Shown: positions 6,361-44,693, counted from the first letter of the stretch. The stretch: 44,693 nt of DNA from Raillietiella orientalis (GCA_036172245.1 JAYWIR010000026.1:2976001-3020693), one strand, 5' to 3'. A program made the numbers and translations. The notes: generated by a model from the letters alone, not told the origin.

Positions 6361-6377
6361 TTTAGCTGCTTGTAGGG

Positions 6378-7592
6378 TTTTTACCAGGGAAAGCCAGGGC
6401 TTTTATTACGAAAAAAAATGGATTGACGAAAGTCGATCCCACATGAGGCGGTGGGCAACGCAATCTATTATTAAATAGAAGAAGGTCTACCTTTCCCCGC
6501 AATCTGCACAATGGACATCCATTCTCCCGAATGCCCAGTGTGAGAAGCGTGCTCTGCTTAAAAGTCCCCAATGGAGCAGAAGCAACGCCGTCTCCTGCCA
6601 CTGCAGGGGAAGGGTGCCGTTTTCCCAAGACGCTGGGGGCCGCTCCACCTCCTCTGGAGGTATATCGAGAAGCTCACCCCAGCACACAATTCCATTCGGC
6701 AAGACACTCGAGGTTGCATCGTCCGCTAGTTCCCAAGACGTCCACGCCTTTATAGGTATTCTCCTGCCTCCGATGAGGCAAGTCACTTCCCACGATGCCT
6801 CCTGTTGGCTGTCCCTGGCTTCTCTGAGGGAAGGCAACACGGGGGTAAGGGGGATGAAGGAAGCATACAGAAGTTTCTGTGAGTTCGAAACGATTTCCTG
6901 CAGTGGCTGGTCAGCGTACCTGCCTCGACGGAGGCAGGTACGCTGACATCGCTGGAGCTGACATCGCTGGAGTTGTTGATTATGCCCCCACGTCGAAACG
7001 GACTCCTGGAGCCAGGTAGTTTTGTGCGCGGGAACGCAGAAGATCCACGTGTTGTTCTTCACCAAGGCAACCAAGTCGCGTAGCTCAAAGCCACTATTGT
7101 CATGACTACGGTCGTTAGCCACTAGGAATGCGATCAATTCGGTAGCAGACGGTTACCCTATTGGCAAGGAGTCTTGTAAGCGCGCACAATGACTCTGTCC
7201 TTTTTCTTGCCAGCAGGGAGTGTTAGAGAATTTGCAGCTGCAGCTCCATGCCCTCCATCCTCAGAAAGTCCAAGCGACCGTCCCTTAGTTGAGCGCAAAG
7301 CTCTTTTAATCGGAAAAAGACCTCCCTGTACCCCAAAGCGCTTTTCTTATGAGGCCCCTTGTCCGTGTACTTACTTGACGAGAAAGTGTGAACACAAAAA
7401 GCAGGGAGCGGAGAAGGGTGGCCACAAAAGCGTTCCCCGCCGAGCCCCGTCCCGGCAAGAGGAAGTTGCCTTCCCGGAACGGGCCAATCGCCAGCTCTAC
7501 TTACTTTAGACGACCTGACCAGGCTTCAGACGGGTAGAAGTCCCTCAACGGAACGTCAAGGTACTACAGGTACCTAGCCGTGGGGATCCCTG
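6378..7592 (-). mobile_element. Element H: old 5'-truncated, internally deleted L1/Tx1-like copy (E-like C-terminus)
   Basis: GIPTARYL...VELAIGPFREG near 7590-7470; WGELLDIPPEEVERPPASW...WQETALLLLHWGLLSRAR...CADCGER (ORF 6487..7137); degenerate family terminus AATAAAAG-CCCTGG-CTTTC-CCTGG-TAAAAA at 6378-6407. Confidence 0.75.
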
Positions 7593-9663
7593 AGCGGTAT
7601 TTCGCCGCAGCGTTTATCATAAAAACAAACCTTAACAAAGACGTGCAATGGCTGGACCATTGCGCCAGCAACGCAGGAAGAAACACAGAGCCTGCCCGGT
7701 CACCTGTTCGCAGACCGGTACGGTCCACCATGGCAACAAAGGGAAGGAGGAAAAAACAAAAAAACAAAACAAAAAGAAAACAAAAAATGGGAAGGTACGG
7801 GAAGGGATCACTGTAGCTGGTGGGGCTGTTTCATCCTTTCCAGGATGCTGGCAAGCTCTTTCTGCATCCCGGGATCCAGGTATGGCCATCGCGACGCCCT
7901 CCTCGAGAATAAGACGGCGCCCTGGATGGCACCCTTGTCGCGTGGTACTCTCGTAGACGTGCTCCACGCGGCGACGATCCCGCGAAGGCAGCACAGGGTC
8001 GCTATCGAGCCTGCTGGCCGAAGGGAGTCGGCAACAAAGAGGGCTTTAAGAGCGTCCCTGGGGCTGCTGCAGGGGATTATGATGGCCGCGGCAAAGCATA
8101 ACCAACGGGGCCGAAGGGCAACACAATCCACAAGCTGGTTGGGGAAGGAATCCCGTTCCCCACACCTGACACATTTGGGGTCCATTGCACCCCAGGTCCA
8201 GTGGTGTCGGCAAGCGTTGCAGGGGAGTCCCTGGTGTTGCAACAGGAGTGCCGAATCCTGCCATTTTAAGGGGAGGTGGAGGTGTTCATCAGCACTTCTA
8301 GAAGCTCCCGCCAGCGCAAAAGTCCAATAAGGGTGGTAATCCGGGCCGCAGTATCGCAAACAATGCCCGTTTTCCATTTCCCCAACTTTTTCTCCGCACG
8401 AGAGACTTCCGCAACAACTTCCCATACCGCCGCAGTGTTGCTGTTCAGTTGGTCTACGAGGGAAAACAGCATTGCAGCGAGGGGAGTTTTCCTCGCACAT
8501 GCTCGTTTTTGAGGATTCTACAAGATCGCCCGGAGCGTGAGGCGGTGGTTGCGCGCAAGCAGTTGTATCCGATGTTGCACGGCGCGTTGCTCGTTACTCC
8601 TCTTCCACGTGTAAATGGTTTCCTGGAGCCAGGCTGTTCCGTTAACAGGGCGACAGAAGAGCCATCCCGCGTTCTTCTTCATCAGATCAGCCACTCTCCG
8701 CAGCTGCAACCCGCAGTGATCAACTTGGCGGCGACGACGGAGAGCAAGGAAGGATGAGAGTCTCACTTTGCCTGTTGCCTGTTCGACGAGGAGACTTGCG
8801 GGCTCGCACCAGCCGCTACTACAATACTTAGCTACTAGGGCGAGTAACCGAAACCCGAGCTTAAGCTCCAGCCGCTCCAGCGTCAGGAGGCCGAGCTCGC
8901 CGTTACTACGCGGAGCGCTCAAGTCCGAAAGCCGGACTCGAGCCCTCACTCTACCCCAAAGGGCAATCCTTAGGAGGTCCTTCGTCCGCTTTTTAGTCTC
9001 TGTGGTGAGGGGACAAACAAAAAGTAGGGAACGAAGGAGGGGGGCTGAGAACGCGTTCAACACTGCGGCCCGCCCCGGCAGGAAAAATCTGCGGCCTTGA
9101 AACGAGCCGATCGCAATCTCTACCTTCTGAAGGCAGCTGGATCACGCATCCGAAGGAAGAAAATCCCCCATCGGTACACTGAGGTACTTGAAGTAACGTA
9201 CCGTGGGGATACCCGAACAGACCCAGTCCGGCTGCCCTGCCCACGCCGCACCGATTGGCATGACGGACGACTTCGCCCTGTTCACCTTTAGCCCAATTCC
9301 CCGACTTAGCAGGTCAAAGGAACTCCTCGACCGCCGATGACGGGGTGGACATAGGGAGCAGCAGCAGAAGGTCGTCCGCGCATGCTGACACCGCAGGCGT
9401 ACCGAGACAGTCGCGTGGCAGGTGCGCTAGAGTTTCCCTGTACGCTCTCAGTAGCAACTCGAAGTAGGTACTAAAGAGCTAAAGACTCAGGCTGTCTCCC
9501 TGCCGTATACCGCGTCGCACCGGTACGCCCTACACGGTGTGTCTACTGAAAAAGATCTGGATGGGCGCGTCGCTCCAGCGGTATCGCAGGTAGGTCAGCA
9601 AAGAGACCGGGAAACCCAAGCGTGACAGGAGCTCCAGCAGGAGCCTCTAATGTATAATAGAAT

Positions 9664-9664
9664 G

Positions 9665-9698
<34 letters not shown>

Positions 9699-9699
9699 T
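9664..9699 (+). repeat. A28 tract flanked by GCTT direct repeats inside the F RT
   Basis: GCTT(9664-9667)-A28(9668-9695)-GCTT(9696-9699); the equivalent site in G (cataaagcattcg, ~39003) is uninterrupted. Confidence 0.8.
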
Positions 9700-9764
9700 T
9701 ATGCAAATCGACTGCGACTGCGAGGGCTCCCTCCCTCCCAACCATCCCGCTCCCAAGCGGCGCA

Positions 9765-11484
9765 CCGGTTCTCCCTGCTCCATGTTTTCCGATTCCGATA
9801 CAGGCCTCATCTGGACGGGTAGACAGGTATCTGCTACCTGCAATTCCTCCTCCATGAGGTCCGATTCGTTGGCTGGGCTGGTCGGTGGAAGGAGGAGGTC
9901 GTCAGCTTCCTGCTCCCCCTCCATCGTGGTTGACAGCTGCTCGGTCGCGGGGAGTGGGATATTCCCTTCCTCCGTTCTCACTCTACCGGCTTTCCCTCCG
10001 GCTACTGATGCGTCCCCCTTCTCCTTCTTGGTCGAGAGTCGCCGCCTCGGATTCTTGGACTTGAGTCCCGTCTTCTTTGGAGGCGCCTCCGCGGAGGAGG
10101 ACGCACTACCGGCATTCGGATCAGCATCACCTTCAGGTGCCTTCACCGCGGCCGGTCTTCTTACGGCTTTTCGTGCCGGAATCTCGCGGCCGACGAGTTC
10201 GGCCTCCAGCTCTTCCGCCGCCTGTTCGAAGGCGGCGTCCTCGATTACGGGCAGCGCATCGCACGGCTCCTCTGTTTCCAGAGAGAGTTAGCCTTCGAGA
10301 ATCTCTGCTTCCGCGCAAACGAGGCGGAAGTTGTTTCCTTCGGTGGCGACCTCTAAGGCCCCCATGCGCTCCAAAGTAACCGAGCATTCGCGAAGTAATG
10401 CGCGGCGCTCTCTGTTATCCAAAGATTTTGCCACTGGCTCCGCTTTCGTGCCTTCGGTTTTGTTTGGTATTTTTGGCTCAACTGTCCGCCAGCCCTTGTT
10501 CTCACCAGAGACTTCGGGAGTTTTCTCGACCGGCGTTTGCTGAGAGGGTTTGGGGTCTGGATTCTGGGTACGCCTTGCTGTAGCCACTTCAGGCTTTGAC
10601 ATTATTTCCGCGCGTTTTCCTTGAGCCTTTTTCAAAGCAAGGGAAGCCGGAATTTCGCGTTTTGTGCTCACTTTGCGGAGGAGGCCCTTTTCTCCGCATG
10701 ATAAACACTGGATGTGCGGGCTACGTTTTATCAGGTGCCCTGTGGCATCGCAGTGTCCACAGTACTTGGGTTTCCCTACGTACCAGACATCTACCTTTTC
10801 GTTGGTGATGTCCAGCTTGTGGGGTAACCCACCGTTTTCATTCATGGTTACACGCTCTGCGGCCATGCCACTAAGCAGCCTTCCATAGATCTTGTAGACC
10901 TTGGGCTTGAACCAGACCGCGTGTACCGTGCCGTATTGGCTGAGTGCCTCCTGCACGTTTTTTGTCGACATGCGGAGAGTAACTCCCTTGAGGTGCGCTA
11001 CTACGGAGCGGTTCTCAGTAACAGGGAAGAGGTTTCTGCCTTCCAGCGTAATGGGGAAGTTCAGCAGGAGTTGAGCCAGGCTTGCATCCTTGCAAGTCCA
11101 ATCCAACCGCTGACCCCCACTAAGAACGGAAAGACCTTCCAGCTCTTCTTCCTTAACGTTAAGGCGCTGCAGCTCCCTTTCGAAGTTGCGAGTGGTGTTG
11201 CCAACAAAGATATTGCCTACCTTATAGATTAGGGACGACTTATACCCTTGCTCCTTATATGCCGATTGTTCGGCCATGGCAGCAGCGGATGGTGCCGCAG
11301 CCACGGCGCTCCAAGTCCACGTCGTGGGCGAGGATGGCTCGGAGGGGTCGGTTGCACCCTTTTTCAAGGGGACCGATGCCCTCGCCTTCGTGGGGGCGAT
11401 CGTCCCCACCACCATGGGTTGGGGAGAGGAACTAGCCTCTCCTACTCCAATATCCATCGCGGTGTCCGCAGGCACTTCTACCAT
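9765..11484 (-). pseudogene. F ORF1 (RRM-like region plus CCHC knuckles), premature stop at 10288
   Basis: LPHKLDITNEKVDVWYVGKPKYCGHCDATGHLIKRSPHIQCLSCGEKG (both knuckles damaged). Confidence 0.85.
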
Positions 11485-11589
11485 GGTACATCGACGATGT
11501 GCCATACACACTCACAAATGAAACGAAAAAGAAAAGCTTCCCAAACTGGAGCGGTCGGAGTGCAAGAAGAACACGTCCACCACCCTTCG

Positions 11590-12033
11590 ACGAGGAAGAT
11601 CGTGATAGCCAAGGAGTTTAAACTTTGCCTGCTCTTAGGGGCGTGCTGCACGCAAAAGGTGCCGATCGAGTTGTGATCCGCAATGCGCGCGCGCAACTTG
11701 ATGAAAGGACACTCGGAAATGGGGGACAGCATCAAATTCGTTTCCCTTGACCACGACCTGTGTACTCGGTTTGGTAAACGAGGAAGGCTTCCGTCGACGC
11801 TGTCCGACCATTTCCGTCTGAAGTTCGATGTCTGGCTACGCTATAAGGGACCCCCATCCAGAGCGTGGCGCCTACCGGGGGATTGGACGAGGCTCCCAGG
11901 TGCGGCAGATTATCTCCGTCAATTCCTGAGAGGCGTATTCTCCGGAATCTCGAGGATTGGGACGTCTTCAAGCTTTCGGTCCGCGAATTCTGTGAGGATT
12001 TTCCTATGGGTGGACTTCCCCACGGATTTTGGG
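11590..12033 (+). pseudogene. Element D left piece: decayed APE C-terminus and linker
   Basis: AMRARNL...LSDHFRL...WRLPGDW...SVREFCEDFPMGGLPHGF, ending at the GF(G) codons. Confidence 0.8.
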
Positions 12034-15000
12034 TTGCCCCCCGGGTGGGCCCGAAGCGTTTATTATTAAAACACTACAATAACGTGGTATCAGGCTCCAC
12101 TAACAGCCACACAACACCGGACCTGCCGGGATGCCGGGACGCAGCCCGGCGTGGCACTCTTCGACAGCGAAGGGGGATGGGGTAAAAACAAAAAGCAAAA
12201 ATAAAAACAAAAAGAAAACAAAAAGAAGTTGGAGGGCAAGGACGGGATAACAGTTCACGGGTTGGAGGAACCATCCGTTGAAGGAAGTTCTCAAGGTCCT
12301 TCTGCATAATTGCCAGCAGGGAACATCCATCAGCTCTCCGCATGAAGCTGATTGCATACAGGGAGACTTCCCCCTCGTTTATGTCCCGATCATCGTTGTT
12401 TGGCATCGCTCCAGGCCGCCACGATGCGTAGGACGAAACAAAGTGCTGCGTGGGCTGCGACAGGTTGCAGGGCGTTCCGCACGACGAGGAGGCGGAAAAC
12501 GTCTCTAGGGGTGCTGCCCGTCGGGAGACCCAGGGTCGACCCAAACCGTTCCCAAAGGGGTCCAAGGGCAGCACAATCCACAAAAAGTTGGAAGAGCGAT
12601 TCCCGCTCCCCACATCTGGCACATGCAGGATCCACAGCTCCCCTTGTCCAGTGGAAGCGGCGCGCGTTGCAGGGTAGACCCCAGTGCAACAGAAGCAACG
12701 CCGACTCTTGCCACTCAAGGAGCAGAATCCTGGATTCTAACATAAGCGGGGGCCACTTCAGCACATCCATGGGAATATCGAGTAGCTCGCCCGATCTCTG
12801 TATTCCTCGGAGCTGAACGATCGGGGTCGTGGCGTCGGCAAGTGATCCTGTAGTCCAGCCGCTCGTCAACTTCTCGCGTCCCTCGATGCAGCAGGAGACT
12901 TGCCACCTTGGCGTCCGGCTGCTGTGAAGTGCCCTTATCAGGAAGAACAGCGCCGTAGCTAAACAGGTCGTCTCTGCCCACGTGCTTCTTGCTGGACTCT
13001 CCAGGAGATTCCGCAGCGTGCAGTAAGCGTAGGGGCTGCATCGGAGACGATTCCACGTCTCGTGGTTCCTCTGGTTAAAGACTGCCCACGTACCAATATT
13101 CTCTTCAAGCAACGCGGGGGAGTTGGCGGGGCAGCAAACCATCCACCTGTTCTCCTTGGCCAATGTTGCCATGCGCTCGAGCAGTAGGCCGCATATTCGC
13201 ATCTTCCGGCCACGGCTCAAAAGAAAAGACGCGAGTCCATCGCACCGGGACACACGGCTGGCAAGGAGGCGGGCCGGAGTGCACAGAAGGGTGCTCCACA
13301 TCTACGCTGCGATGGCGAGGGTTCGCCACCGCAGCTGCTTCTCCACGCGCTCCAGCGTCAGGAGGCCAAGACCGCCGTCCAGACGAGAAGCGCGCAAGTC
13401 CTTCAAAGGGACTCGGGGCCCCCCCTTGCCCCAAAGGGCGATACGGAGGAGGTCCTTTGTCCTCTTCTTGGATTCCACGGTGGAAGGGCAAACAAAAAAC
13501 AAGGGGCGAAGGATGTGGGCCTCAAAGGCGTTCCTAACCGCGGCCAGTTCCGGCAAGTGAAACTTACCTTCGAGGAACGGGCCGATCGCCGTCTCGACTT
13601 TTTGGAGGCAGCTGGAACACGCTTCCGCAGGGGAGTAGTCCCCCAACGGCACACCAAGGTACTTGAAGCACCTCGCCGTGGGGATCCCCAGACGGACCCA
13701 GTCCTGCTGCCCTGCCCACGCCGCACCTATTGGCACAACCGACGACTTCGCCCTGTTAACCTGCAGTCCGGTCCCGCGGCTGAGCAGATCGAAGAAGTCT
13801 CCGACCGCCTTTGCCGGGGTGGACATCGGCAACAAAAGCAGAAGATCGTCGGCGTACGCTGCTACGGCGGGCGTGCCGGGGCACGAGCTCGGCAAGGGGG
13901 CCAAAGTCACCCTGTACGCTCTCAGCACCAACTCAAAGTAGGTGCTAAAGAGCAGGGGACTGAGGCTGTCGCCCTGCCGTATGCCCCGCCGTACCGGCAC
14001 GCCGTACGCCATTTGACCTCTGAAAGAGATATTGATCAGCGCGCTGCGCCAGCAAGAGCGCAGGTAGGTCAGTAGGGAGGGAGGGAAGCCCATGCGTCCC
14101 AGGAGCTCCAGCAGGAGATCCTGGTCCAAGCAGTCAAACGCTTTGTGCAGATCGACTGCGATCGCTAGGGCTCCCTTCCCCACCTGGGAGTCCTGTCCCT
14201 GCCCGGCTGACGCCCCCAAAGCGGGGCTGCCAATCCTTCCCTCTTCCTTTTCTTCACTAGTCTGCACATGAAACCATGTGCTCGCGAAGAAGAGGTGGCC
14301 TCCATACTTCGCCCTGGAACAGCGTAAGTCTACTCCGGGCTAATTATGGAATTGGCCACCTGCCCGAGACGCGAAGCCCACAGTCCGGCGATCAACTTGG
14401 CGTCCGTGTTCACAATTGTGATCGGACGCCAGTTGCTGAGTTCCCTGAGGTCTCCTCCTTTCGGAAGGAGCCTCACTCTGGCTGACCGAAACGAGGCGGG
14501 TACATCGCCTTCATCTCGGATCAGCCTTGTCAACTCAAGCACCAGGAGTGCCAACTCTGCCGCGAAGCATTGAAAAATCTCCGCAGGCAGGCCGTCTTCC
14601 CCTGGTGCTTTCCGCCTCTTGAGCCTTTTGATACCGGCGAGAATTTCGCCGGTGGTAAAAGGCTCGTCGAGGCTTTCCTTCTCCTCCTCCCCTATTGCCG
14701 GGGCACCGTTCGGAAGCAAGCGCCAAGAGGTATCTTGGTCCGGGGGCGCCCTGGCGTAAGGGAGGAATGAAAACGCCGCACGAGGTGCCGTATTCTAGCC
14801 GGAGCCGAGTGCTCCCGGCCCTGGTCGTCCAGCAAGCTGGCCGATCCGGATTGCCAGGCTTGACGTTCGGCCTCGGCTCGGTACTCTGCCAGGCGACGGA
14901 CATTGGGGGTCCTCTCGTACCGGCGGGCTTGTAAATAAGCCCTATGGTTCCGAGCCCCCTACCCAAATCCGGGGGGCAGGCGGTGCAGGGGAAACTCCTC

Positions 15001-15383
15001 GCAGAACTCGCGGACCGAGGCCTTGAAGAGGTCCCAATCCTTGAGACTGCGGAGGGTGACGCCTCTCAGGAATTCGCGAAGGTGTTCCTTCGCACCTGAG
15101 AGTCGCGTCCAGTCCCCCGGCAGACGCCAATCCCTGGATGGCGGTCCTTTGTCGCGAGGCCGCATCTCGAACATTAGCCGGGAATGGTCCGACAACGTCG
15201 ACACAACCCTCCCCCGTTTGCCGACGCGTGAACACAGGTCAGCGTCCAGGAAGACGTGGTCGATGCTGCGGACCATTCCTTTCTCACCCGCGAACAAGTT
15301 GCGCGCACGCATGGCGGCGCACAACTCGTTCATCGCGTTCTCTTGTGTTTCTGGCTCACCTGTTAGCAGACGGAGATTGAAAT
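12034..15383 (-). mobile_element. Element A, 3' part (APE C-terminus, RT, zf-RVT, 3' UTR)
   Basis: FNLRLL...SDH, KAPGEDGLPAE, WRPITIVNTDAK, VDLHKAFD, GIRQGDSLSPLLF, AYADD, KYLG, CARCGERES; terminus AATAAACGC-TTCGGG-CCCA-CCCGGG-GGGCAA at 12034-12064; several lesions. Confidence 0.9.
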
Positions 15384-15696
15384 TTATCACCCGGTCACGC
15401 CGGGGCGTTTATTAATAATAATAAACTGGTCAGGGACAATGTCCCCAACCAAGAGAACGACAGAGAACATAGAAAAATTACCGGCACGCAGGCCTGGTAA
15501 ACAAACCGCTCGCAGCGTGGGGGGAATGAGGGGAAACAAACAAAAATCAAAAACTGGAGGGAAGGGTAACGGGTTTTTGGTTAGGCTCCGTACTCACGGG
15601 GATTCATACGATGAGCACCTAAAATGTTCCGGAGCCTATGGGGACGCGGGTGTAAAAAGAAAATACAAATTTAGTTTATGGAGGGTAGGGCAATGA

Positions 15697-18600
15697 TCAC
15701 CGGGTTGGCCGCTGATGATGGTGTGTAAACCGGCGGTGTATTGCGGCGAGATTCCTCTTTGTCTCCTCTGTCAAATGAGGCCATCTAGCGGATGCTCCCA
15801 TGTAGAAGGATGCTTTGCTGATTACCTCTTGGTGCTGTCCGTTGATTACCAACGCCTGGCGGACGGAAACTATCGCGCGTATGCAACCGATGGTTGCAAT
15901 CCTTGCGCTTAGTGAAAGCCTGCTCGGCGTGAAGAATCGTCGCAGCAAGTCTCTTGCGGTGTCCACGGGATGCAATAGTGCTGTTGCTGCCTACGCCACA
16001 GTCCTTGTAGGACACCGCAGTCCAGAAGTAGGTACGGAATCGACTCCGTGGATCCGCACCGAACGCAGTTCGCAGACGCAAGTCCCCCGGAGTCACGATG
16101 CCAACGCTCGTTGCACTGAAAACCCCAGTGAACGAAAAGCAGCACGGCTTGTTTCCAAGCAAGGGGGAGCAGCGAACTGTCCATACACTGTGGAGGGACT
16201 ACAAGTTCTTCGGGGGTGACAGCAAGTTCTTCTGCCCACCGGAGGAGTCCCTTTGCAGTAACACGAGGAGTGGCGGCGTCCGCCAACTCACTTGTCTTCC
16301 AGGTGCCAAGGAGTTTGGTTCTTCCCGCTATCGTGCAGGAAAACTCCCACCTCGCCGGTTGGTAACTGTCGTTTCTTGCCCTGAGGGCAGACAGCGCTGC
16401 GGCAAGAGGCGTGGCAGCCAGGGTAGAAAACTTCACCTCGTACTGCAGTACTTCTTCCAAGGATCGTGGAAAAAATTGGCGCAGGGGGCGAAGATCTTCA
16501 GGGCGTATTCCTTGGAACGCCGCCCAGGATTCAACAGACTCCTGGCGCCAAGCTTCAAAGTTCATTGGGCGGCAGGAGATCCAAGAGTGTGCTTCCAGAA
16601 GTGCGGTCAACTGCCGCAATGGAAAACCGAAACCCCGCTTTCTGTATTGAGTGCCCGGCAAAAGCGAGAGAAATCCTCCGCTGCCGGCGCATCTCCGCAG
16701 GAGAATGCGAGCTGGCACACACAGGGGGGATGTCCATAGCTGGGCACACAGTGCCAGCAGTCGGAACTGCACCTGCAGTCCGATTCGCTCCATTGTCAGG
16801 ATACCCAAACCGGCATCCCGACGCGGAGCTGACAAATCTTTAAGGCGGATCCTGGATCTCGCCGGACCCCAGAGAGCGTTCCTGAGCAGGCGCTTAGCCC
16901 GCTGTTTTGCCGCATAGGGGGGGTCCAAAACAAAAAACAGGGGACGAAGGAGGGGGGCCACAAAGGTGTTCCAAATAGTCGCCCGTTCCTGCAAGGTAAA
17001 CTTGCCGTTAAAGAACGGGCTGATGGCCAACTCTGCTTTCTGAAGACAGTCCGCTCACGCTTCGGCTGCGCCGAAAGCGCCCAACGGAACGCCAAGGTAC
17101 TTAAAGTACCCGCCCGTGGGGATCCCCAGGCGGATCCAGTCGGACTGCCCCTCCCACGACGTACCCACAGGAACGACCACGCTCTTCTCTCTGTTCACGC
17201 TCACGCCCGCTCCCCGACGAATCAGGTCGAAAAAATCCTCGACACTGGACGCCGGGGTGGACATGGGGAGCAGAAGAAGCAGGTCATCAGCGTAGGCGGC
17301 CACGGCAGGCGTTCCCGGGCAGGAGCTTGGCAAGTGAGACAGCGTCAGCCTGGATGCTCTTAGCACCAACTCAAAGAAGATGCTGAAGAGCAACGGGCTT
17401 AAGCTGTCGCCCTGTCGGATGCCCCTACGAACGGGAATACCATACACGCGGCAGCCGCTGAAAGTAATGCAGGTTAGCGCGTGGCGCCAGCACACGCGCA
17501 AATACAGCAGGAGTTGCGCCGGGAACCCAAGGCGTTCCATAAGCTCCAAAAGCAGCTTCTGGTTTACGCAGTCGAACGCCTTGTGGAGATCGACCGCGAC
17601 CGCCAAGGCACCTGGCGTTCCCTCCTGCCGTCGGCGCCTGTTCTTTTTGCCTGCAACAGTGACTTTCGCAGCAGCTTGGCTTTGCTGCGCCACAACTTCC
17701 TGCAGCTGCATCCATGTACGCGCGAAAAGGATGTTCGCCTCCATGGATCGTCCCGGAACCGCGTAGGTTTGTTCCGGGCTCACCACAGATTCCGCGATTC
17801 TTCCTAACCGCGCGACCCACAGATTGGAAAACAACTTGACGTCCGAGTTCACCAAGGTGATCGGACGCCAGTTGTTAAGTTGGCGCAAGTCTCCGCCTTT
17901 CGGCAGGAGACGCACCTTCGCTGAGCGGAAGGAATCAGGGACATTCCCGGATTCACTCATCAGCGTCGCGAGTTTAAGCATCAAGGGAATGAGCTCCACT
18001 GCAAAGCACTGATGAAACTCTGCAGGGAGCCCATCCTGGCCTGGCGCCTTTCGTCTCTTCAGCCCAGAGATGGCGGACGAAAATTCATGCGCCGTGAAGG
18101 GCTCGTCGAGACGTTCGCGTTCCTACTCGCCGACAACACGAGCATCCTGAGACAGGAGTATCTCAGAAAGAATATCCTCCGTCGGGGATTCCGCGTAGAG
18201 CGAGGAGTAGTAGCGTCTCACAATGCGGCGTACTTCGGCTGGGGCCGAACATTCCTGGCCCTTGTCGTCCAACAGGCATGCTGCTCCGGACTGCCAGACC
18301 TGGCGCTCGGCCTTCGCCTTGTACTCTGCGAGACGCCCGACATCCGCGCGTCTCGAAAACGTGCGGGCCTGCAGAAAGTCTCTACTGTTGGCCACGCCCT
18401 CTCCGAAACCGCGTGGAAGCCGGTGCAAGGGGAATTGGCAACAGAACTCGCGGACAGATCTTTTGAGATCGTCCCAGTCCGCAAGTTCTTGAATGGCAAA
18501 GCCTCGGAGGTATCCACGTAGATGCTCCGCAGCCTACGGTTGGGTAAGCCAATCCGCCTGCATCCTCCAGTTTTGCAACGGAGGTCCCCTGCCTGGCGGA

Positions 18601-21233: not shown

Positions 21234-21270
21234 GATGAAGCGGATGAAAGCACGGAGACGAGAGCGAAGA

Positions 21271-21287
21271 AAAACACGTCCGCACTC
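21271..21287 (-). promoter_or_regulatory. Conserved 5'-terminal motif G(A/G)GTG(C)GGACGTG(T/C)TTT (representative copy)
   Basis: GGACGTG within ~7-11 nt of the 5' end in A, B, C, E and F; variants in G (GGACAGG) and J (CGACGTG). Confidence 0.55.
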
Positions 21288-21296
21288 GATTGAAAT

Positions 21297-31468: not shown

Positions 31469-31476
31469 ATACACCA

Positions 31477-34400: not shown

Positions 34401-35078
34401 AACAGTAGGAGCAGCAACGAGCTGGCATCGTGGGAAGTGTCCTGCCTCATCCGAGGCAGGAAAAAACCTTTAAAGGCGTGGACGACTCGGGAGCTCACGG
34501 ACGCTGCCACCCCGAGCGTCCCGCCTCACGGACTTGCGCGCTGGGGAGAGCTGCTCGCAATACCTCCGGAGGAGGTGAAGTGGCCCCCAGCGTGTTGGGA
34601 TTGCGGCACACTTCCGTTGAAGTGGCAGGAGACGGCGTTGCTATTTCTGCACTGGGGACTGTTAAGCAGAGCACGCCTGTCTCACTGGACACTGGGGAAT
34701 GTGGATGCCCGCTGTGTCGAGTGCGGAGAAAGAGAAACCTTCCCGCATCTCACCCTCGAGTGTGTCGCCCTGGATGGACTCTGGAGTCGAATCGCCCCAA
34801 TCCTCCATCTTCCAGTAGGCGACCCTAAGGAAATTTACCGTCGCCTCTTTCTGCGTGACGGCCTGCGCCCCGCTGCGTCTCTAGCAGTCCTCTGCTGCGT
34901 GCGCGGCATTGTGCAAAGGTGGCACGCCAGAAGAAGAGGCCCAAGATGCAGGGACGCCATCCACTGGACGACGATCTCTCTAGAGACGGCGACAAGGTGG
35001 CGTCTACCTTTCAGAGTTAAAACAGAACTTGACTGCATCCTCAACAGGATGCGGAGGACCGACCCAGGCGCTCAGTGA
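31477..35078 (+). pseudogene. E ORF2 APE-RT-zf-RVT; W>TAG at 31891 and a frameshift near 33100
   Basis: MRGLAFCRRLRITCWNVNGL; GDFN; SDH; VDLHKAFD; YADD; CVECGERETFPHLTLEC. Confidence 0.9.
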
Positions 35079-35302
35079 TCCCTTCCCTGCCCCCTTCCTC
35101 TCCCCATACAACTGTTTCCCTCCCCGTTATCTCTCTTTTTGTTTGTTTTTGTTTTAGTTTTCCCTTCCCATGCGCCTCGGGAATTGACCTAACCGGTGAA
35201 TGCACCGGCAACCGATACGTCAACTAAGGTGGGAAAACCAAGTGTTTCCCACAATCAACGTTTGAAAGACTTTATTATCTAATTTTTGTAGAAAATTAGA
35301 AT

Positions 35303-35332
35303 AATAAATGCCCCGGCATATCCGGGTGGCAA
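35303..35332 (+). terminator. Family 3' terminus: poly(A) signal plus GC hairpin (representative copy)
   Basis: AATAAA 35303-35308; CCCGG/CCGGG stem 35312-35326; same layout at 6378, 7594, 12034, 15384, 23617, 41087 and 41150. Confidence 0.7.
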
Positions 35333-35587
35333 ACTTCGGCTGCAGCCGAGCATTCCTGGCCAGCGTCATCGAGCAGACAATTTGCTTTAAACTTCCAAAC
35401 CTGGCGCTCAGCCCTGGCCTTGTACTCCGCCAGACGCCGGACGTCCGGGCATCGGGAGAAAATACGCGTCTTCAAATAGGATCTGCTGTTCGCGACACCC
35501 TCCTCGAAGCCGCAAGGAAGCAAGTGCAAGGGGAACCGGCAGCAGAACTCGCGGATCGTTCTTTTCATTTCGTCCTAGTCCTCGAGC
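35333..35587 (-). pseudogene. K: B-like ORF2 linker fragment hosting E and G (other scraps at 41117-41150 and 29694-29708)
   Basis: LED*DEMKRTIREFCCRFPLH...GVANSR...QECSAAAEV; 41117-41150 supplies the upstream YLLGFVISEL and 29694-29708 the downstream RRIV. Confidence 0.8.
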
Positions 35588-38500
35588 GAGAGCGGACAGG
35601 CTTTTGTTTCGCTCTTGAGCGTTTGTGGTTTTATTTTTTTTTCTTTTTTTTCATGGTGTGCCAGTGGATTCGGTGGTGGCTAGGCAGCAATGCCTGGGAC
35701 CACCACCAATGTTAAGGAGGGGGCGACGTCTATGTCGCCTCCTGAATCAATGGATGTGGGGGCAACCGCCCCCACAGAAGCGACTCCCTCGCTAGGGAGA
35801 AGCTGGAGTTCCGTGGCTGCGGCGCCAACGCAAGCGGCTGCGGCTGAATTAAAAGCCTACCTGAAGGTGGGGTACAATCCCCCTCTACTCTACAAAATAG
35901 GCAACCTTTACTCCTTTAATAGTGCACGCGCTTTCTCGAAAGCGATGCACTCCTTCAAAGTACCACAGGAGGAGCTCTTGGCGATGACCATCAGGAGTGG
36001 TGGACAGTACGTTGAGGTGATTTGCAAAGAAGCAAGTCTTGCCCGACGTTTGCTCCGTACACCTGTTCCTTTAGGAAATCGCCAGCCCTCCCCTTCAGGG
36101 AGGATAGACCTATCGTGATCCACCTCCTCGGAATAACCTTCCGGATGGCCGAAGAGGCTGTCCGAAGAAAACTAGTTAAATTTGGAACTGTCCACGCGTT
36201 GTGGAAAAGGCCTACTCCGTTTTGGGTGTACGATCTCCTGAATTCCGGTATGGCTTCCGCGCGCATCACGGTCCGCGCGGGTTGCTCCCTACCTAACAAG
36301 CTGGAGATCAACGGCGAACCCGTTGACATCTGGTATGTCGGTAAGCCGCATTTCTGCGGGAATTGCAGCACTTCAGGTCACCTGAAAAAAAGATTCCTTC
36401 ACTTTCAGTGCAAGCAATGCAAGCAATCCAGGCACACACTTCCAGTGTGCACATAAAATGAAGTCCGCGTCGCGTCCGCACGGAATGCGAAGAAGCGCGC
36501 GGCGAGAAAAAGACGCATTCAGGCAGCCCAAGAGAGAGCTGCCTCTCGAAAAACAACTATCGTGCTCCAGGTGAAGGTCAGCTAAGAGATCTTGGATAAC
36601 TCGGACAAGGTCGAGGAGAACGGCCAGGAACCTGGATGGCAGGTAGTGAATACCAAGAGGCAGAAAAGCCTTAAGGAATCAAAAAAAAATGTCGCAAAAC
36701 GCAGCGAGAATTTGCCGCGTCGCGAAAATATCAAATGCTGCTCTGTCGTCATCAAGCGCATTCCTGCGGTCGAAAAGAGCGGCAAAAATGCACTCGTCGC
36801 TGCCGACTCTCAGCCCTCCGGCAAATTAAAGCCGGAAGCTATCGACCCGGCGGAGGCGTTCGTCGTCGAACGCATGCTCGACGACGTCGCCTTTGAGCGA
36901 GCGGCGTAGGAGCTCGCTGCGTCCTTGCAGCATCCCCTTAAATCCTCGAAAAAGGCCTTAAGGCGTCCGACCTCGATCAAGAAGTCGGAGATTCCGAACT
37001 CTGACGCAGAGGCGGAAAACACAGCCTGCGGCATCGCGTCCTCCCGCCCGAAGGCCAATCGCACGAAGAAGGCTACCCGCAAAATTATCCAGTCCGTGGA
37101 AAAGGAAGAGATAATTGAGGGAAGCGAGCGTGCGAATAAAGTGGGGAACTCCGGGGACTCTCCTCGAGAGGTAACTTCACGCTGTGACCCCGGAGGGAGG
37201 GAAGGGTAGAGTCTCTGCCCCAGATGCTTCAAGTGCCTGAGATGGCCGCGGTACACTTACTCGTCCCTCCCACGTGTCCGTTGACGTGCTGCAACGCCAC
37301 GTTCCCAGCCTTAATACCGGGAATAGCCTCTTGCCGCCGTCTGCGAATTGCCTGTTGGAACGTCAACGGGAGAAGCGAACACGGCAAGAGACGAGACGTG
37401 GCCCCCACCCTGGCATCGTTCGACCTGGTGCTGCTGCAAGAGATCCACGTGATCTCCGCAGATCAAGCAACGGAGATCGAGCGTATCTCAAGTGGACGGC
37501 TGCTGTGGCGTTGCGGCACCGTTAAATCTTGCGGTGTCGCGTTCCTGCTTCGTCCAGCTGTTGAGGCTGCGGCAAAGGGCGTACGGTTCAACAGTGCAGG
37601 TCGCGTCGAGCAGTTGACCATCAGGTGGTCCGACTCCATCGATCTGGACATAACCAAAGTGTACGCCCCTAGCGGCAGGGACGCGCAAAGGGCAAAGGCA
37701 AGGAGAAATTTCTTCCTTACCCTGAAACGCGAATACCTGGACGAAGCGGGAGTGCGCAAAGCGCAAGTAATCGCAGGTGACTTTAACCTGCGCCTGCTGT
37801 CAGGTGCGTCCGACACAGTTCGGGACCGCGTGAACGAGCTGTACGCAGAGATGCGCACACGCAACTTGTTTGCGGGAGATCCGGAAATGGCCGACAGCAT
37901 AGATCACGTGTTTCTTGACCAGCACCTATGCTCACGCGTGGGCAGGCGCGGCAAGTTACCGTCGGAACTGTCGGACCATGACCGGATCGTACTCGAGGTG
38001 CGCCCACGCGATAGGGGTCCGCCGTCATCTGCGTGGCGCTTACCGGGGGACTGGCTGAAACTTACGGAAGCCGCGGATTATCTCCGCGTATTCATACGAG
38101 GTTTCAGCTTGCAGACGCTTCAGGAATGGGACCGCTTCAAGCAATCGGTCCGGAATTTTTGCGACGAGTTCCTTATGAACCTCCTGCCTGCCGGGTTTGG
38201 TGAAAGCGTGCGTAACGAGAGATGGTATTTACAATCTCGATGTTACGCGCGAACACCAGACGTACGCAGGCTAGCCGAATACAGTGCGGGAGCCGAGAGG
38301 CAGGCGTGGCAATCCGGGTCGGCCAGCTTACTGGACGACCAGGGTTCGGAGCACTCGGCCCCCGCCCAGGTAAAAGGCTTATTAAAAAAATTCTATTCCT
38401 CCCTGTACGCGCGCGCTCCACCAACGGGATGTCTCGCGACTCCTTCTTCCGGAAGGCGCTTTGGCAATCGGGGAGGAAGATAGAAAGACCCTCGACGAGC

Positions 38501-41116
38501 CTTTCACGATGGGCGAGATCATCTCGGCCATCGGAAAGCTCAAGAGGCGGAAGGCTCCAGGGGATGACGGCCTGCCAGCGGAATTTTTTCAATGTTTCGC
38601 GGCAGAGCTCACTCCTCTGGTGAAGAAACTCACCTTGCTGTTCCGCGAAACGGGCGACGTCCCCGCCTCGTTTCGTTCGACAAATGTGCGTCTCCTCCCT
38701 AAGGGAGGAGACCTTCGGAGCATGAGCAACTGGCGGCCGATTACCGTGATAAACGCGGACGCCAAGTTGCTGGCGAAATTGTGAGCTGAACGCCTGGGGC
38801 GGTTAGCGAAAAGCTTCATTAGCCCGGAGCAGACATATGCTGTTCCCGGGCGGAGCATGAATGCCAACCTGTTCCTCGCAAGCACCTTTTTCGCGCTCGA
38901 ACAGGAAAAGTTCAGGATGGGCGACCGGACTTCCGGAATGTCCGCCGCTAGGAAACGGGATGGTTGGGGGGAAAGGGAGCCCTCGCAGTCGCAGTCGATT
39001 TGCATAAAGCATTCGACTGTGTCGACCAGATGCTCCTCCTGGAGCTCCTGGAACGCTTGGGCTTCCCGGTCTCTTTGCTGACATACCTGCGATCCTGCTG
39101 GCGCAACGCGCTCATCCAGATTTTTTCAGTGGACACACCCTGCTCGGCGTACCTGTGCGACGTGGCATACGGCAGGGAGACAGCGTGAGTCCCTTGCTCT
39201 TCAGTACCTACTCCGAGTTGGTACTGAGAGCGTACAGGGAGACTCTAGCGCAACTGCCGCGCGACTATCCCGGTACGCCCACGGTGTCAGCATATGCGGA
39301 CGACCTACTGCTGCTGCTCCCTATGTCCACTTCGGCATCGGCGGTCGAGGAGTTCTTCGACCTGCTAAGTCGGGGAACCGGGCTTGAGGTGAACAGGGCG
39401 AAGTCGTCTGTCATGCCAATCGGTGCGGCGTGGGCAGGGCAGCCGGACTGGGTCCGTTTAAGGATCGTCACGGTACGGTACTTAAAGTACCTCGGTGTAC
39501 CCATGGGTGATTATCTCCCTTCGGATGCGTGGTCCAGCTGCCTTCAAAATTTAGAGACGGCGATCGGCCCGTTCCATGGACTCAGGTTTTTTCTGCCGGA
39601 ACGGACCGCGGTGTGGAACGCATTCGTGGCGCCTCTCCTCTGTTCCCTGCTTTTTGTTTGTCCCCCCACCACAGAGACTAAAAAGCGGACGAAGGACCTC
39701 CTAAGGATTGCCCTGTGAGGTAATGGGAGGGCTCGAGTCCGTCTTGAGGACTTGAGCGCTCCGCGTCGGGACGGCGGTCTCGGCCTCCTGACGCTAGAGC
39801 GGCTGGAGCTCCAGCTCCAGTTTGGGTTACTCGCCCTAGTGGCGAAATATTGGAGTAGCAGTTGGTGCGAGCCCGCACGTCTCCTCGTCGAGCAGGCTAC
39901 AGGCAAGGTGGGACTGTCTTCCTTCCTTGCGCTCCGTCGGTGCCGCTAAGTCGGTCACTGCGGTTTGCAGCTACGGAGAGTGGCTGACCTGATGAGGAAG
40001 AACGCAGGATGGCTCTGCTGTCGCCCCGTTAACGGACCTGCATGGCTGCAGGAAACGGTTCAGACGTGGGCGAGGAGCAACCAGCAACGCACCCAAGAAG
40101 GGCAGAGACAATTCTTCCCCGTAATTACCGCCTGACGCTCCGGAAGGTCCTGGAGAACCCCCAAAAACGAGCGTGGGCAAGAAAAACTACCCTCGCTGCA
40201 ATGCTGTTTCCGCTCGCGGAACATTTAAACGGCAACAGTGCTGCGAAATGGGATGTTTTCGTAAAAATCTCCGGTACGGAGAAAAAGATCGGAGAATGAA
40301 ATCGGGAATTCTCTGCGATACCGCGGCCCGGACTACCACCCCTATTAAACTTTTGCGCTAGGGCGAGCTGCAAAATGTTCCGCGCGAGCAATTAAAGTGG
40401 CCCCGGTGCTGATGATTTCCACCCTCCCCTTAAAATGGCAGGAGCCGGCGCTCTTGTCGCTGCATTGAGGACTCCCCTACAACGCCCGCCGACACCATTG
40501 GACCTGGGAAGCGGTGAGCCCTAATTGTGCGAGGTGTGGAGAACGGGAGTCCCTCACGCACCTCCTTTTGGATTGTGTGGCTCTTCGGCCCCTTTGGAAC
40601 CGTTTTGCCGCGGCAATCGGTAACCCCTGTGGCAACCCCAGAGACGCAATCAGATCCCTCTTCGTTTGCGACGTCCTTCGTCCCTCGGCCGCGTTAGCAG
40701 CTCTGTGCTGCTTTCGCGGGATCGTCGCTGCATGGAGCAAAGCAACGGGAGGACCTCGCGATAAGGGTGCCGTCCAGTGCGCAGCCGAATTTATGCGAAC
40801 GGCGACAGGATGGGCCCATCTGGAATCAAACATCCAAAAACAGCTTGCCGGCATCCTGCAAAGGATGTAACGGCCCCACAGCAGACTGTGATCCCTTCCC
40901 GTGCTCCCCAGATCTTGATATTATATATTTTTTTTTTTTGTTTAATTTTTTGTTTTGTCCTTGGCCCCTCTGCTGTCGTGATGGACCGTGCCGGAATACG
41001 AACCGGTGAGCCGGCAGGCTTAATTTTGTATACCAGTGCGTCGCCGGACCACCTGGTCAGACACCAACGTTTGTTTTATCCTAAAGAATAAACGCCCCCA
41101 CGCAACCGGGTGAAAA
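35588..41116 (+). mobile_element. Element G: full-length decayed L1/Tx1-like copy, 6-bp TSD
   Basis: TCGAGC at 35582-35587 and 41117-41122; starts GAGAGCGGAC; ORF1 from 35690; ORF2 ~37314-40891 with many stops; 3' AATAAACGCCCCCACGCAACCGGGTGAAAA. Confidence 0.9.
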
Positions 41117-41149
41117 TCGAGCTCACTTATAACAAAGCCAAGGAGGTAC

Positions 41150-43297
41150 ATATGCCGGGGCATTTATTATTCTAATTTTTTACAAAAATTTGATAATAAA
41201 GTCTTTAAAAAGATGTTTTCTGTATGGAAACACTGGGTTCTCCCATCTCGATCGACGTGTCGGTTGCCGGTGCATAGACCGGTTAGGTCCATTCCCGAGG
41301 CGCATGGGAAGGGAAAACTAGAACAAAAACAAACAAAAAGAGAGATAACGGCAAAAGAAACAGTTCTATGGGGAGAAAGGGGGACAGGGAAGGGATCACT
41401 GGGCGCCTGGGTCGGCCCTGCGCATCCCGTTAAGGATGCAGTCAAGTTCGGTTTTTATTGTGAAAGGTAGACGCCACGTTGTCGCAGTCTCTAAAGAGAT
41501 CGTCGTCCAGTATATGAAGTCCCTGCATCTTGAGCCTCTTCTTCTGGTGTGCCACCTTTGCACAATGCCGCGCACGAAGCAGAGGACTGCTAGAGACGCA
41601 GCGGGGCGCAGGCCGTCACGCAGAAAGAGGCGACGGTAAATTTCCTCAGGGTCAACTACTGGAACATGGAGGATTGGGGCGATTCGACTCCACAGTCCAT
41701 CAAGGGCAACACACTCCAGGGTGAGATGCGGGAAGGTTCCTCATTCTCCGCACTCGACACAGCGGGCATCCACATTCCCCAGTGTCCAGTGACACAGCCG
41801 TGCTCTGCTTAACAGTCCCCAGTGCAGAAATAGCAACGCCGTTTCCTGCCACTTCAACGGGAGTCTGCCGCAATCCCAACACGCTGGGGGCCACTTCACC
41901 TCCTCCGAAGGTATTGCGAGCAGCTCTCCCCAGCGCGCAAGTCCGTGAGGCGGGACGCTCGAAGTGGCAGCGTCCGTGAGCTCCCGAGTCGTCTATGCCT
42001 TTAAAGGTTTTCTCCTGCCTCGGATGAAGCAGGACACTTCCCACGATGCCCGCTCGTTGTTGCTCCTAGTGTTTTTTAGAAAAGACAGAACGAAGGCAAG
42101 GGGGCTGAAAGAAGCCCACAGAAACTTCCAGCGTGTTCATAATATTCTGCAGCGGCTTACGAGCGTACGGTCCTCGTCGTAGGCAGTTGTATTCCGCCTC
42201 GCTCGTGCCGTTGATCTTAGCCTACGCGGAAGCTGACTCCTGGAGCCAGGCAGTGCAGTTCGCGGGAAGGCAGGAGATCCAGGTATTCTCTCTCGTCAGG
42301 GCGACCATCTGGCGCAAATCGGGGCCACAGTTGGATAGGCTGCGCTGCTAGGCCACGAGGATCGAGGACAATCCTTCGCAGCCGGTCGCTATTCTGGCGA
42401 GGAGCCGTGCCGGATCGCACCATGGCGTCATCCTTAAGCTAGCCGCAAGGGCTAACTTTCGAATTGTTGTTTGTAGTTGGATGCGCTCAAACGTGACGAG
42501 GCCAAAGCCACCATCCCTGCGTGCAGCGCACAAGCCTTTCAATCGGACTGGCGACCTCGCTGTGCCCCAAAGGGCGGTCCTCAAGAGGGCTTTGATCCGT
42601 CTCCGTATGATGAGAGAGGCGGGGCAAACAAAAAGTGAGGGGCGAAGGAGGGGGGCCGCGAACGCGTGCCACATTGCGGCCCGCTCCTGCAAGTAAAACT
42701 TGCTTTTCCGAAACAAGCCGATCGCCAACTCCACCTTTTGGAGATGGTCGGACCAGGCTTCTGCAAAGCAGAAGTCCCCCAACGAAACGCAAGGTACTTC
42801 AAGCACCTGCCCGTGGGGATCCCCAAGCGGATCCAGTCCGGCCGTCCGGCTTACGCCGTATTGTTTAAAAGTAGTGGTGATGTTCCAACGATGAAAGATT
42901 TCTCTCGAATCACCTCGAGGCCCTTCCCGCGGCGCAGCAACTCAAAGAAATCTTCGATCGCCGACGCCGGGGTGGACTCGGGGAGTAGGAACAGAAGGTC
43001 GTCGGCGTAGGCCGACACGGCAGGCGTGCCTGCACACGAGCTTGGCAGGGTTGCCTCAGTCTCCCTGTGTGCCCTCGGCACCAGCTCGAAGTAGATGCTG
43101 AAGAGCAAGGGGCTCACACTGTCACCCTGCCTTATGCCACGGCGAACCGGCTCGCCGTACATGTGTCGGCCGCTAAAAGAGATGTTCATTAGAGCGAAGC
43201 GCCAGGAGGGGCGCAGGTAAGCCCGGAAGACGGCCGGGAATAACAAGCATTCCAAGAGCTCCAGAAGGAGTTCCGGGTCGACGCAATCGAACGCTTT
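41150..43297 (-). mobile_element. Element I: E-subfamily copy (RT from KAFD to 3' UTR) with the terminal hairpin cut in half
   Basis: Closely similar to E 33175-35321 in inverted orientation; ends AATAAATGCCCCGGCATAT; ORF2 stop 41396-41398. Confidence 0.9.
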
Positions 43298-44693
43298 ACG
43301 TCGGCTACAGCCGACGTGTTTCCTCGGTGCTCCTTGTGCCGGGAACCGTCTCTAGGTGTAGGATTCGTGTGTGGTGGTGGTCGATCACGCAGCAATGCTT
43401 GACACGACCACCAGTGCGTGTCAGGGGGCGGTGGCAACGTCGCCTCCTGAAGAAATGGAGTGCCACGTGGCGGCGGCAACTTCGCCTATAGAGAAGGTGG
43501 AGTGCCAGGAGGCGGCGGCAACGTCGCCTTCAGTGGCGAAGGAGGTGGGGGCGTTCTCCCCCACAAAACCGTTCCCCGCTGCAGCGCGGGAGTGGAGCGC
43601 CCTCGTGTCGGCGCCATCGCCTGCAGCCGCGGCGCAATTATCTGCCTATGTGGAAGAGGGGTATAACCCATCACTATTCTACAAGGTAGGAAATTTGTAT
43701 TCTGCTGAGAGTGCGCGCGCCTTCCCGAAGGGGATGCGCGCTCTCGATGTTAAAGAGGAGGAGCTCTGCGCTATGACCATTCGTAGCGGGGGGGCAGTAC
43801 GTAGAGGTGATCTGCAAACATGCAGATCTGGCCCAACGTCTGCTGAAAACCCCCGTGGTAATGGAGACACGCATGCTCCTTCCCGTTACGGCGGACCACA
43901 GTATGGTGGTCCACCTTTTAGAAGTTACCGCGCGGATTCGCAAAGAACAGTTACGCGCCGCGTTGGGAAAAGAAGGCACGGTCCATGCAGTATATACCAA
44001 GTCCAGTCCTTTCGAGGACTATACCACAGTTCAGTGCGGCCTCACTGCTGGCCGTGTAACCGTTCGGAAGGGCTCTACTCTTCCCCACAAACTAATGGTC
44101 GGAGGAGAAAGCGTCGACCTCTGGTACGTGGGGAAGCACAAATACTGTGGCTTCTGCAACACGTCGAGACACCTCAAAAGGAGGTGCCCCAACGTACAGT
44201 GCCTGGTATGCGGGACAATGGGCCACACAAAGGAAGTGTGTCCACAATCCGCTGTGCGCGTGGTTTCCGCGAGGAACCTTAAAAAACGAGCGCCGCTGCT
44301 ACAGAAAAAACTGGCGGCGAAGGCTGCCGCTCGAGCTGTGCCACCCACTCCCGTGGTACAGGGCTCAACCGACACTCCGGCAACGAATGTCGAAAAGATC
44401 GACAAAAGTGGTCAGGTGTCGGAATCGAAAGAAGTCACAGCGAAAAAGAAAAAAAAGACGAAGAAAAAACGACAAATTGAAAAAAAGCTCGCCTACCAAA
44501 ATAAAAAACAGCAGGTTAGCGAGAATTTAAAAGAATGCAGCGTCCTCGTTGAGCGCGTCCCCGCCGAACGCCGCAAGGTAGAAATCGCTGCTACCGACAA
44601 GCAAACCACTGTTGAAAATGGCAACAGCGTGGGGATCGAACCGGCGGAAGCGTCCGTCATCGAGACCGTGACCGATGACGCCGCCTTCGAGCG
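43298..44693 (+). mobile_element. Element J: 5' end and frameshifted ORF1, runs off the right edge
   Basis: 5' CCGACGTGTTT; WSALVSAPS...GYNPSLFYKVGNLYS; LPHKL...VDLWYVGKHKYCGFCNTSRHLKRRCPNVQCLVCGTMGHTKEVCP. Confidence 0.85.
43415..43545 (+). repeat. ~42-bp (14-aa) tandem repeat x3 at the J ORF1 N-terminus
   Basis: CQGAVATSPPEEME / CHVAAATSPIEKVE / CQEAAATSPSVAKE. Confidence 0.75.

Follow-up and report, generated by a model that had tools for sequence, protein, structure and literature searches.

LINEs (long interspersed nuclear elements) form head-to-tail arrays at telomeres in Drosophila (HeT-A/TART) and Giardia (GilM/GilT), and DIRS-1 of Dictyostelium is a self-nesting, centromeric element. 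LINEs of the Tx1 clade, which join an apurinic endonuclease (APE) and a reverse transcriptase (RT) to a CCHC-bearing ORF1, insert into particular repeats at defined sequence targets. The closest described systems are the clusters of L1-type LINEs in green algae, Zepp in Chlorella vulgaris and Coccomyxa subellipsoidea C-169 and ZeppL in Chlamydomonas and relatives. According to published descriptions, Zepp targets resident copies and builds tandem arrays (PMC8226300). The Zepp clusters of Coccomyxa C-169 are described as nested, 1.5-42.3 kb long and present once per chromosome, with 61% G+C in a 53% genome, without satellites and probably centromeric (PMC3446292); Coccomyxa centromeres are given an average of ~23 kb (PMC11005252). 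The related ZeppL-1_cRei is described as marking all Chlamydomonas centromeres (PMC8226300, PMC9940879), with CENH3 bound at ZeppL regions (10.1101/2025.03.28.645958). For the C-169 L1/Zepp element, ORF1 is reported to be HTH_1-like and without zf-CCHC (PMC5203782). Here we describe a self-nested cluster of a single LINE family in a 44,693-nt stretch of DNA from Raillietiella orientalis (GCA_036172245.1 JAYWIR010000026.1:2976001-3020693), referred to below as the window, and compare it with these systems.

Twelve copies or fragments of one L1-superfamily LINE family fill positions 6377-44693 end to end (Table 1), forming a cluster of at least 38.3 kb that reaches the end of the window. The count falls to 11 if two neighboring pieces, E2 and E3, belong to one element with an internal deletion, as they may. 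All of our results on structure and bias rest on this one window. In tblastn searches with the ORFs of one near-complete copy, every stretch of the region returned the same element plan, and self-blastn of the window gave 58 pairs at 64-98% identity. Pfam recognized RVT_1, Exo_endo_phos and zf-CCHC in ORFs throughout the region, with zf-RVT falling below its cut-off, and found no other transposon domain in the 35 ORFs scanned; neither Pfam on the ORFs nor tblastn revealed a second repeat family inside the block. The pieces abut one another, leaving no more than a few tens of bases unassigned at the joints. An earlier reading of this DNA, made from the sequence alone and hereafter the sequence-only reading, had described about 38 kb as almost entirely one superfamily with no unique host DNA between copies, and both statements hold. 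G+C content is 58.5% in the cluster vs 46.6-51.7% to its left, and the change at 6377 is sharp, with the LINE block on one side and a spacer and a different retroelement on the other. The identity of the family and its nested structure are beyond doubt. As to its origin, we give a probability of roughly 0.6 to directed accumulation of the family in and beside its own copies, in the manner of Zepp and ZeppL, combined with the account of tail priming set out below.

Three of the insertions are clean nests within relatives. Z cuts X between ...IAGDFN and LRLL and is flanked by a 9-bp target-site duplication (TSD), ATTTCAATC, at 21296-21288 and 15383-15375 (GATTGAAAT on the + strand); in another public run, one contig links 15374 to 21288 and has 9 letters compatible with either side, as for an uninterrupted relative. 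G sits in K between two copies of a 6-bp TSD, TCGAGC, at 35582-35587 and 41117-41122. D also sits in K, where it separates ...SAAAEV from RRRIVH... with a 0-bp duplication while the frame of K continues across it. In a more elaborate arrangement, Y and X (the latter carrying Z) stand head to tail, and antisense, between the two halves of a + strand copy, E4 and E4b, whose ends (...LPHGF and GGLRNDRAY) are contiguous on the ORF2 plan and match LPPGFNKGARNQWAY of Y. The sequence-only reading had already placed these events at GDFN with the 9-bp TSD, in K with TCGAGC, between AEV and RRIV, and at GFG, respectively, and the duplications and contiguous host copies agree with it in every case.

Two of the six junctions named in that reading are abutments whose second flank lies outside view. 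The tail of E2 adjoins E1 at R-S-GIP, as had been proposed for an abutment at RLGIP. The 5' end of I adjoins H exactly before KAF, and this had been taken as an insertion at HKAF; the abutment is exact, but the insertion itself cannot be proved because the window ends before the other flank. A same-sense copy directly follows the tail of Y (X), of E2 (E1) and of H (K, with H cut in its hairpin loop). Taking all eight 3' ends together, the flank after the tail is the same family in 7/8 and spacer in the remaining one (E1). A run of 28 A residues inside E2 lies at the HKAF codons, 1 nt from the break point in H, and looks like the product of a poly(A)-only retrotransposition.

The Y-X pair is associated with three copies of a 9-nt target, consensus GCCGAAWCC (Table 1). 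Because the two 9-mers around Y agree at 8/9 positions and those around X at 6/9, and because the branch leading to Y in the tail tree is the shorter one (0.035 vs 0.125), the simplest history would be that X inserted first and Y later at the same 9-nt site. X is itself a mosaic, far closer to Y in its 5' part than in its 3' part, and the switch in identity falls exactly at Z. The 5' part was probably converted from Y, which suggests gene conversion between tandem neighbors that was halted by the nested Z. The middle 9-mer may have been carried along with this conversion, and the case for the triplicated 9-mer as a double hit is weakened to that extent.

We used copy Y, the least damaged with one frame break per ORF, as the reference for the element plan. 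The element is about 5.5-5.9 kb long and consists of a CCHC ORF1 followed by an APE-RT-CCHC ORF2. Its 5' untranslated region begins with a motif common to the 5' ends: GAGTGCGGACGTG in Z, GAGAGCGGACAGG in G, GAGGGTGGACGTG in D, GCGAGTGGACGTG in X and Y, GGTGGTGGACGTG in E3 and CCGACGTG in I. GGAC is present in this start in 6/7 copies, I being the exception. ORF1 carries two CX2CX4HX4C knuckles (zf-CCHC, 25.1 bits against a cut-off of 20.8) and a long Pro/Glu/Ala-rich tail, and Pfam found no HTH_1 in it at E up to 0.01. The frame is open over 649 aa in the 5' part of X and broken in Y. In copy I, the N-terminal part of ORF1 contains a 42-nt unit repeated 2.5 times at 43427-43529. The ORF2 frame opens ~190 nt ahead of the ORF1 stop and without an ATG near its start (X 21618-21807, Y 27284-27470, - strand); given this overlap and the absence of a nearby ATG, ORF2 may be made via frameshifting or another unusual route.

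ORF2 contains the APE endonuclease motifs GDFN and SDHS, then the RT motifs HKAF and YADD, then a CX2CX7HX4C motif, which reads CARCGERESLPHLIVDC at the C-terminus of Y. One and the same ORF2 carries RVT_1 (E as low as 4e-22) and Exo_endo_phos (E between 8e-11 and 1.5e-12); zf-RVT reaches 25.1 bits in D and 17.9 bits in Y, in each case short of its cut-off of 27.5. In a structure comparison covering the two LINE groups with solved structures, L1 and R2, the best relative of ORF2 is human LINE-1 ORF2p (E 4e-51), with R2 proteins at 5e-15 or weaker, which upholds the L1-superfamily part of the 'L1/Tx1 clade' assignment made in the sequence-only reading. The nearest protein match is one metagenome protein at 71% identity; the other 148 listed matches are at 39% or below, save a 132-aa fragment at 71%. 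After P0001 and this fragment, the nearest relatives are predicted proteins of great length that match in several places, P0062 (5500 aa), P0063 (3503 aa) and P0061 (1555 aa, with seven matched stretches). Gene prediction in other genomes may have produced them by fusing models across LINE clusters. A search of viral contigs for ORF2 gave 8 pattern matches, 0 of which were confirmed.

The 3' ends follow a plan of their own: (A/G)ATAAA, GC, a short hairpin of the CCCGG/CCGGG type, TG and 2-5 A. L1 tails are poly(A), as a rule that not every L1-clade family follows, and no such long poly(A) is present here. The AATAAA-hairpin motif that the sequence-only reading had picked out is found at 8/8 3' ends, with E2 carrying a GATAAA variant and lacking the terminal GGTG..AA. 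In the hairpin stem, one E2 pair is altered on both sides and X pairs via G-U, although seven sequences are too few for covariation. A metagenome scan with the pattern AATAAAYGCCCCGG-N4-7-CCGGGTG returned 2 loci, which had no LINE similarity by tblastn or blastn and were set aside as chance matches. Both ends are present in 5/12 copies (X, Z, Y, D and G). All five of these full-length copies have frame breaks or stops, and intact ORFs are found in 0 copies.

A tree of the eight tails resolves four lineages, (X,Y), (E2,G), (E1,(D,H)) and Z, which are 51-69% identical to one another across the final 1.7 kb. For Y vs the 3' part of X, dN/dS is 0.25 (618 codons) and 0.40 (420 codons); in the converted 5' part of X it is 0.67 (298 codons). 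The values of 0.25-0.40 indicate that the lineages diverged while active, as elements under purifying selection and not as decaying relics. The presence of several active lineages in one block suggests a property common to the family or to the locus. Despite the repeat density, CpG observed/expected is ~1.0 overall and 0.79-1.11 by piece, and transitions barely exceed transversions between copies (ratio ~1.1-1.2); there is thus no sign of methylation-driven decay or of decay resembling repeat-induced point mutation.

The same lineages live in another sample or strain, as judged from the contigs of one coded public DNA run (X1), compared over 4001-24000. Across window positions 12700-24000 these contigs contain sequences related to the X/Y and Z lineages (90-99% identity, summed depth 10-30), whereas the run holds 7% of the left-flank words and almost none of the unique left flank. 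Several X1 joints at conserved RT motifs were read as chimeric contigs, and one weak joint (depth 2, side 21), in which 15 nt separate a Y-type tail from a Z-type 5' end, is not relied on. Among the pieces listed for this run, none provided a usable independent flank.

Table 1. Copies, fragments and target sites of the LINE cluster, from left to right in the window
Feature	Position	Strand	Description
E1	6377..7593	-	5'-truncated, RLGIP of RT to tail; tail AATAAAAGCCCTGGCTTTCCCTGGTAAAAAC ends at 6377 against non-LINE spacer, the left cluster edge
E2	7594..9796	-	3' part of a copy, starting ~100 nt ahead of HKAF; 78-80% identity to G, whose lineage it belongs to
E2 tail hairpin	7618-7594	-	Adjoins E1
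A28 run	9668..9695	+	GCTT on both sides; inside E2 at HKAF codons, antisense to E2
E3	9797..11588	-	5' UTR (untranslated region), ORF1, linker; 5' start GAAGGGTGGTGGACGTG at 11588
E4	11589..12023	+	Left half of host fragment, from just upstream of GDFN to ...LPHGF
9-nt target, third copy	12024..12032	-	CCAAAATCC; directly after X tail
X, 3' part	12033..15383	-	GDFN to tail; 87.4% identical to Y (23616-26959)
Z	15384..21287	-	Full-length, 5904 nt, own lineage; same-sense nest in X
X, 5' part	21288..23605	-	5' UTR, 649-aa ORF1, ORF2 start to GDFN; 97.6% identical to Y (26951-29268)
9-nt target, second copy	23607..23615	-	GCCGAAACC; between Y tail and X 5' start
Y	23616..29268	-	Full-length, 5653 nt; reference copy
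9-nt target, first copy	29270..29278	-	GCCGAATCC; immediately upstream of Y 5' start
E4b	29279..29672	+	Right half of host fragment E4, GGLRNDRAY ... APGEDGLPAEFYQGF; right boundary approximate
K piece c	29673..29712	-	~40 nt, RRRIVH..., K beyond D; left boundary approximate
D	29713..35334	+	Full-length, 5622 nt; antisense nest in K; 90-92% identical to H
K piece b	35335..35587	-	Endonuclease-RT interval, ending ...SAAAEV
G	35588..41116	+	Full-length, 5529 nt, many stops; antisense nest in K
K piece a	41117..41149	-	33 nt between G tail and cut H tail
H	41150..43297	-	D lineage; KAF of RT to tail, cut inside hairpin loop at K
I	43298..44693	+	5' end and ORF1; adjoins H at HKAF, continues past window end

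To the left of the cluster lies a 2.3-kb spacer (4101-6376, 46.6% G+C) in which no gene, rRNA or tRNA is recognizable. The window as a whole contains no host gene, no rRNA or other Rfam family and no tRNA detected by ARAGORN, and 0 of the 8 telomere repeat motifs tried were found in it. Just outside the cluster, a different non-LTR (lacking long terminal repeats) element occupies positions 2 to ~4072 on the - strand and is cut off by the window's left end. At 34-42% identity, the RT of this element matches animal proteins of the R2 type; an upstream ORF contains a C2H2-like CxxC...HxxxxH stretch, and no APE domain was found in the element.

Directed accumulation would account for the cluster as follows. 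Repeated target-primed reverse transcription would have placed one L1-superfamily family into or beside earlier copies of its own, and later deletions or rearrangements, probably with one gene conversion between neighbors, would have altered the result. The family or its host would direct new copies to the locus at the level of region or chromatin and not by a strict DNA motif, because the target sites have nothing in common: no shared motif was found among ATTTCAATC, TCGAGC, GCCGAAWCC, GCTT and the blunt D site. Element transcripts would be cut and polyadenylated ~25-30 nt past AATAAA, and reverse transcription would begin at the very start of the poly(A), leaving tails of 2-5 A and, in one case, the A28-only insertion. 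The presence of a single family, with four lineages that diverged under selection, favors such family-specific accumulation over a general repeat graveyard.

The sequence-only reading had offered two ideas about the locus, that the family uses its kin as a safe harbor or that the locus is a trap resembling a piRNA cluster. The anatomy fits accumulation in and beside kin, and kin may serve as a safe harbor for new copies. The trap is the less likely half of the proposal, since such loci gather many repeat families and here there is one; CpG observed/expected of ~1.0 was also counted against it.

Several observations weigh against directed accumulation or against its Zepp-like form. Some joints go beyond plain insertion, namely E4b/K, which is tail-to-tail, the joint of E4's left end with the 5' start of E3, and E2/E3. 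Since plain insertion does not explain these breakpoints, deletion or rearrangement must, on their evidence, also have shaped the block. Within the window, position clustering is not significant when one event is counted per host copy (p 0.24), and neither is the orientation bias (p 0.07-0.34). The tail hairpins are no more stable than shuffled sequence (z +0.37 to -1.28 over 7 tails). The named proteins nearest to ORF2 match weakly, at 22-29% identity, and come from mixed sources (Xenopus, legumes and Closterium); a protein atlas also returned mixed taxa. ORF1 has two CCHC knuckles where that of C-169 is described as having no zf-CCHC (PMC5203782). Twin priming was considered as a source of the E4b/K joint and rejected, as the order of segments does not fit.

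A passive graveyard is an unlikely explanation, though one to be taken seriously. Insertion would be random, copies would survive only in a gene-poor stretch of low recombination, and nesting would arise by chance. Target sites without a common motif, frame breaks or stops in all five full-length copies, position and orientation biases that are not robust, and the rearranged junctions of a reshaped block would all suit such a history. A graveyard should, however, collect several repeat families, and one is found in 38 kb; a different, R2-like element lies immediately beyond the edge, outside the block. Random insertion also sits poorly with the use of one 9-nt site by two elements and with HKAF codons broken in two host copies within 1 nt of each other.

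The repeated use of sites could instead point to sequence-specific self-targeting, in which a lineage's endonuclease, or RNA-DNA pairing, would pick ORF2 sites of kin: the PGFG codons for the X/Y lineage and HKAF for another, with an antisense bias arising from RNA pairing with the resident copy. We consider this improbable. X and Y do lie at one site with its triplicated 9-nt target, and the HKAF codons are hit in two host copies, by the I/H break and by the A28 run in E2 (coincidence p 0.03-0.06). Six of the nine mapped events fall within the ~650 nt between endonuclease and RT, with a naive p of 0.006, but three of them are in the small fragment K and the clustering is gone once each host copy contributes a single event. 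Antisense events number 7/8 among those nested or abutting by a 5' end (p 0.07), 6/7 if X and Y count once (p 0.125) and 7/10 with same-sense tail abutments included (p 0.34), so that the statement of the sequence-only reading that most copies are antisense to their host stands as a description and not as a significant bias. The homologous PGFG site is free of insertion in the five other copies that keep the stretch (X, Y, Z, D and G). The one 9-nt site and HKAF are used twice, but the remaining sites, those of different elements, are unrelated in sequence, and the triplicated 9-mer could in part represent the 5' end shared by X and Y, given that the 5' part of X looks converted. The recurrent-site and antisense patterns are hints, not established within the window.

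Homing through the resident copies themselves, and not through chromatin, strikes us as similarly doubtful. The RNA of an element would pair with a copy already in place, and a nick in the sense strand that it displaces would supply the primer. This model would yield antisense copies, recurrent sites at PGFG (X, then Y) and HKAF (E2 and H), and lineage-specific sites in ORF2. If true, it would represent RNA-guided or homology-guided self-targeting by a LINE, possibly in a host outside green algae. An assembly artefact joining similar repeats wrongly is very improbable: repeat clusters are often misassembled and X1 contigs themselves have chimeric joints at conserved RT motifs, but Z and G have clean TSDs, the reading frames of the host copies resume exactly on the far side of Z, D, G and the X-Y pair, and a 3755-letter contig of an independent run extends through Z to 30 letters past its 5' junction, where 31 count as bridging, while another of 1040 letters extends 19 letters past the 3' junction, below that mark.

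The locus shares features with several systems outside green algae. Like Tx1-clade LINEs, the family is an APE-RT element with a CCHC ORF1 whose copies lie in particular repeats, although Tx1 targets are defined and the target sites here have no common motif. Accumulation only beside or inside its own copies, at one class of locus, would be shared with HeT-A/TART, GilM/GilT and DIRS-1, and the head-to-tail joints Y-X, E2-E1 and H-K resemble those of the telomeric arrays. In contrast to these systems, the cluster has no telomere repeat, contains copies in mixed orientations and belongs to a different clade of elements.

Zepp, which the sequence-only reading had proposed as the comparison, proves the right one in size, purity, G+C peak and architecture. 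Judged against published descriptions, Zepp/ZeppL and the present family are L1-type elements with a gag-like ORF and an RT ORF, and both form near-pure, single-family clusters of nested and tandem copies over tens of kb without satellite DNA. The local G+C peak (58.5% vs 47-52% here, 61% vs 53% described for C-169) and the size (at least 38.3 kb, within the C-169 range of 1.5-42.3 kb) are also alike. The elements here are 5.5-5.9 kb long vs more than 8 kb given for ZeppL-1_cRei. Zepp arrays are described as consisting mainly of 3' ends (PMC8226300), whereas five of the 12 copies here are full-length, and four lineages coexist where one ZeppL family is reported in Chlamydomonas (PMC9940879). 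Because ORF1 has two CCHC knuckles and that of C-169 is reported without them, the family is not Zepp itself; the block is most likely a further self-nesting LINE cluster of the Zepp/ZeppL kind.

Several green algae have LINE clusters of this sort as their centromeres, and the present locus may be a centromere as well, because it would work like the Zepp/ZeppL clusters that mark them. Should the host lie outside the green algae, the phenomenon would extend further than is documented at present. Genome-wide comparisons of targeting could take as markers the clean junctions found here: the 9-bp and 6-bp TSDs, the twice-used site and the poly(A)-only insertion. A further family of this kind would offer a point of comparison for how a retrotransposon finds, builds or maintains a centromere-like locus, and this one departs from Zepp in its ORF1, in the coexistence of four lineages and in the large number of full-length copies.

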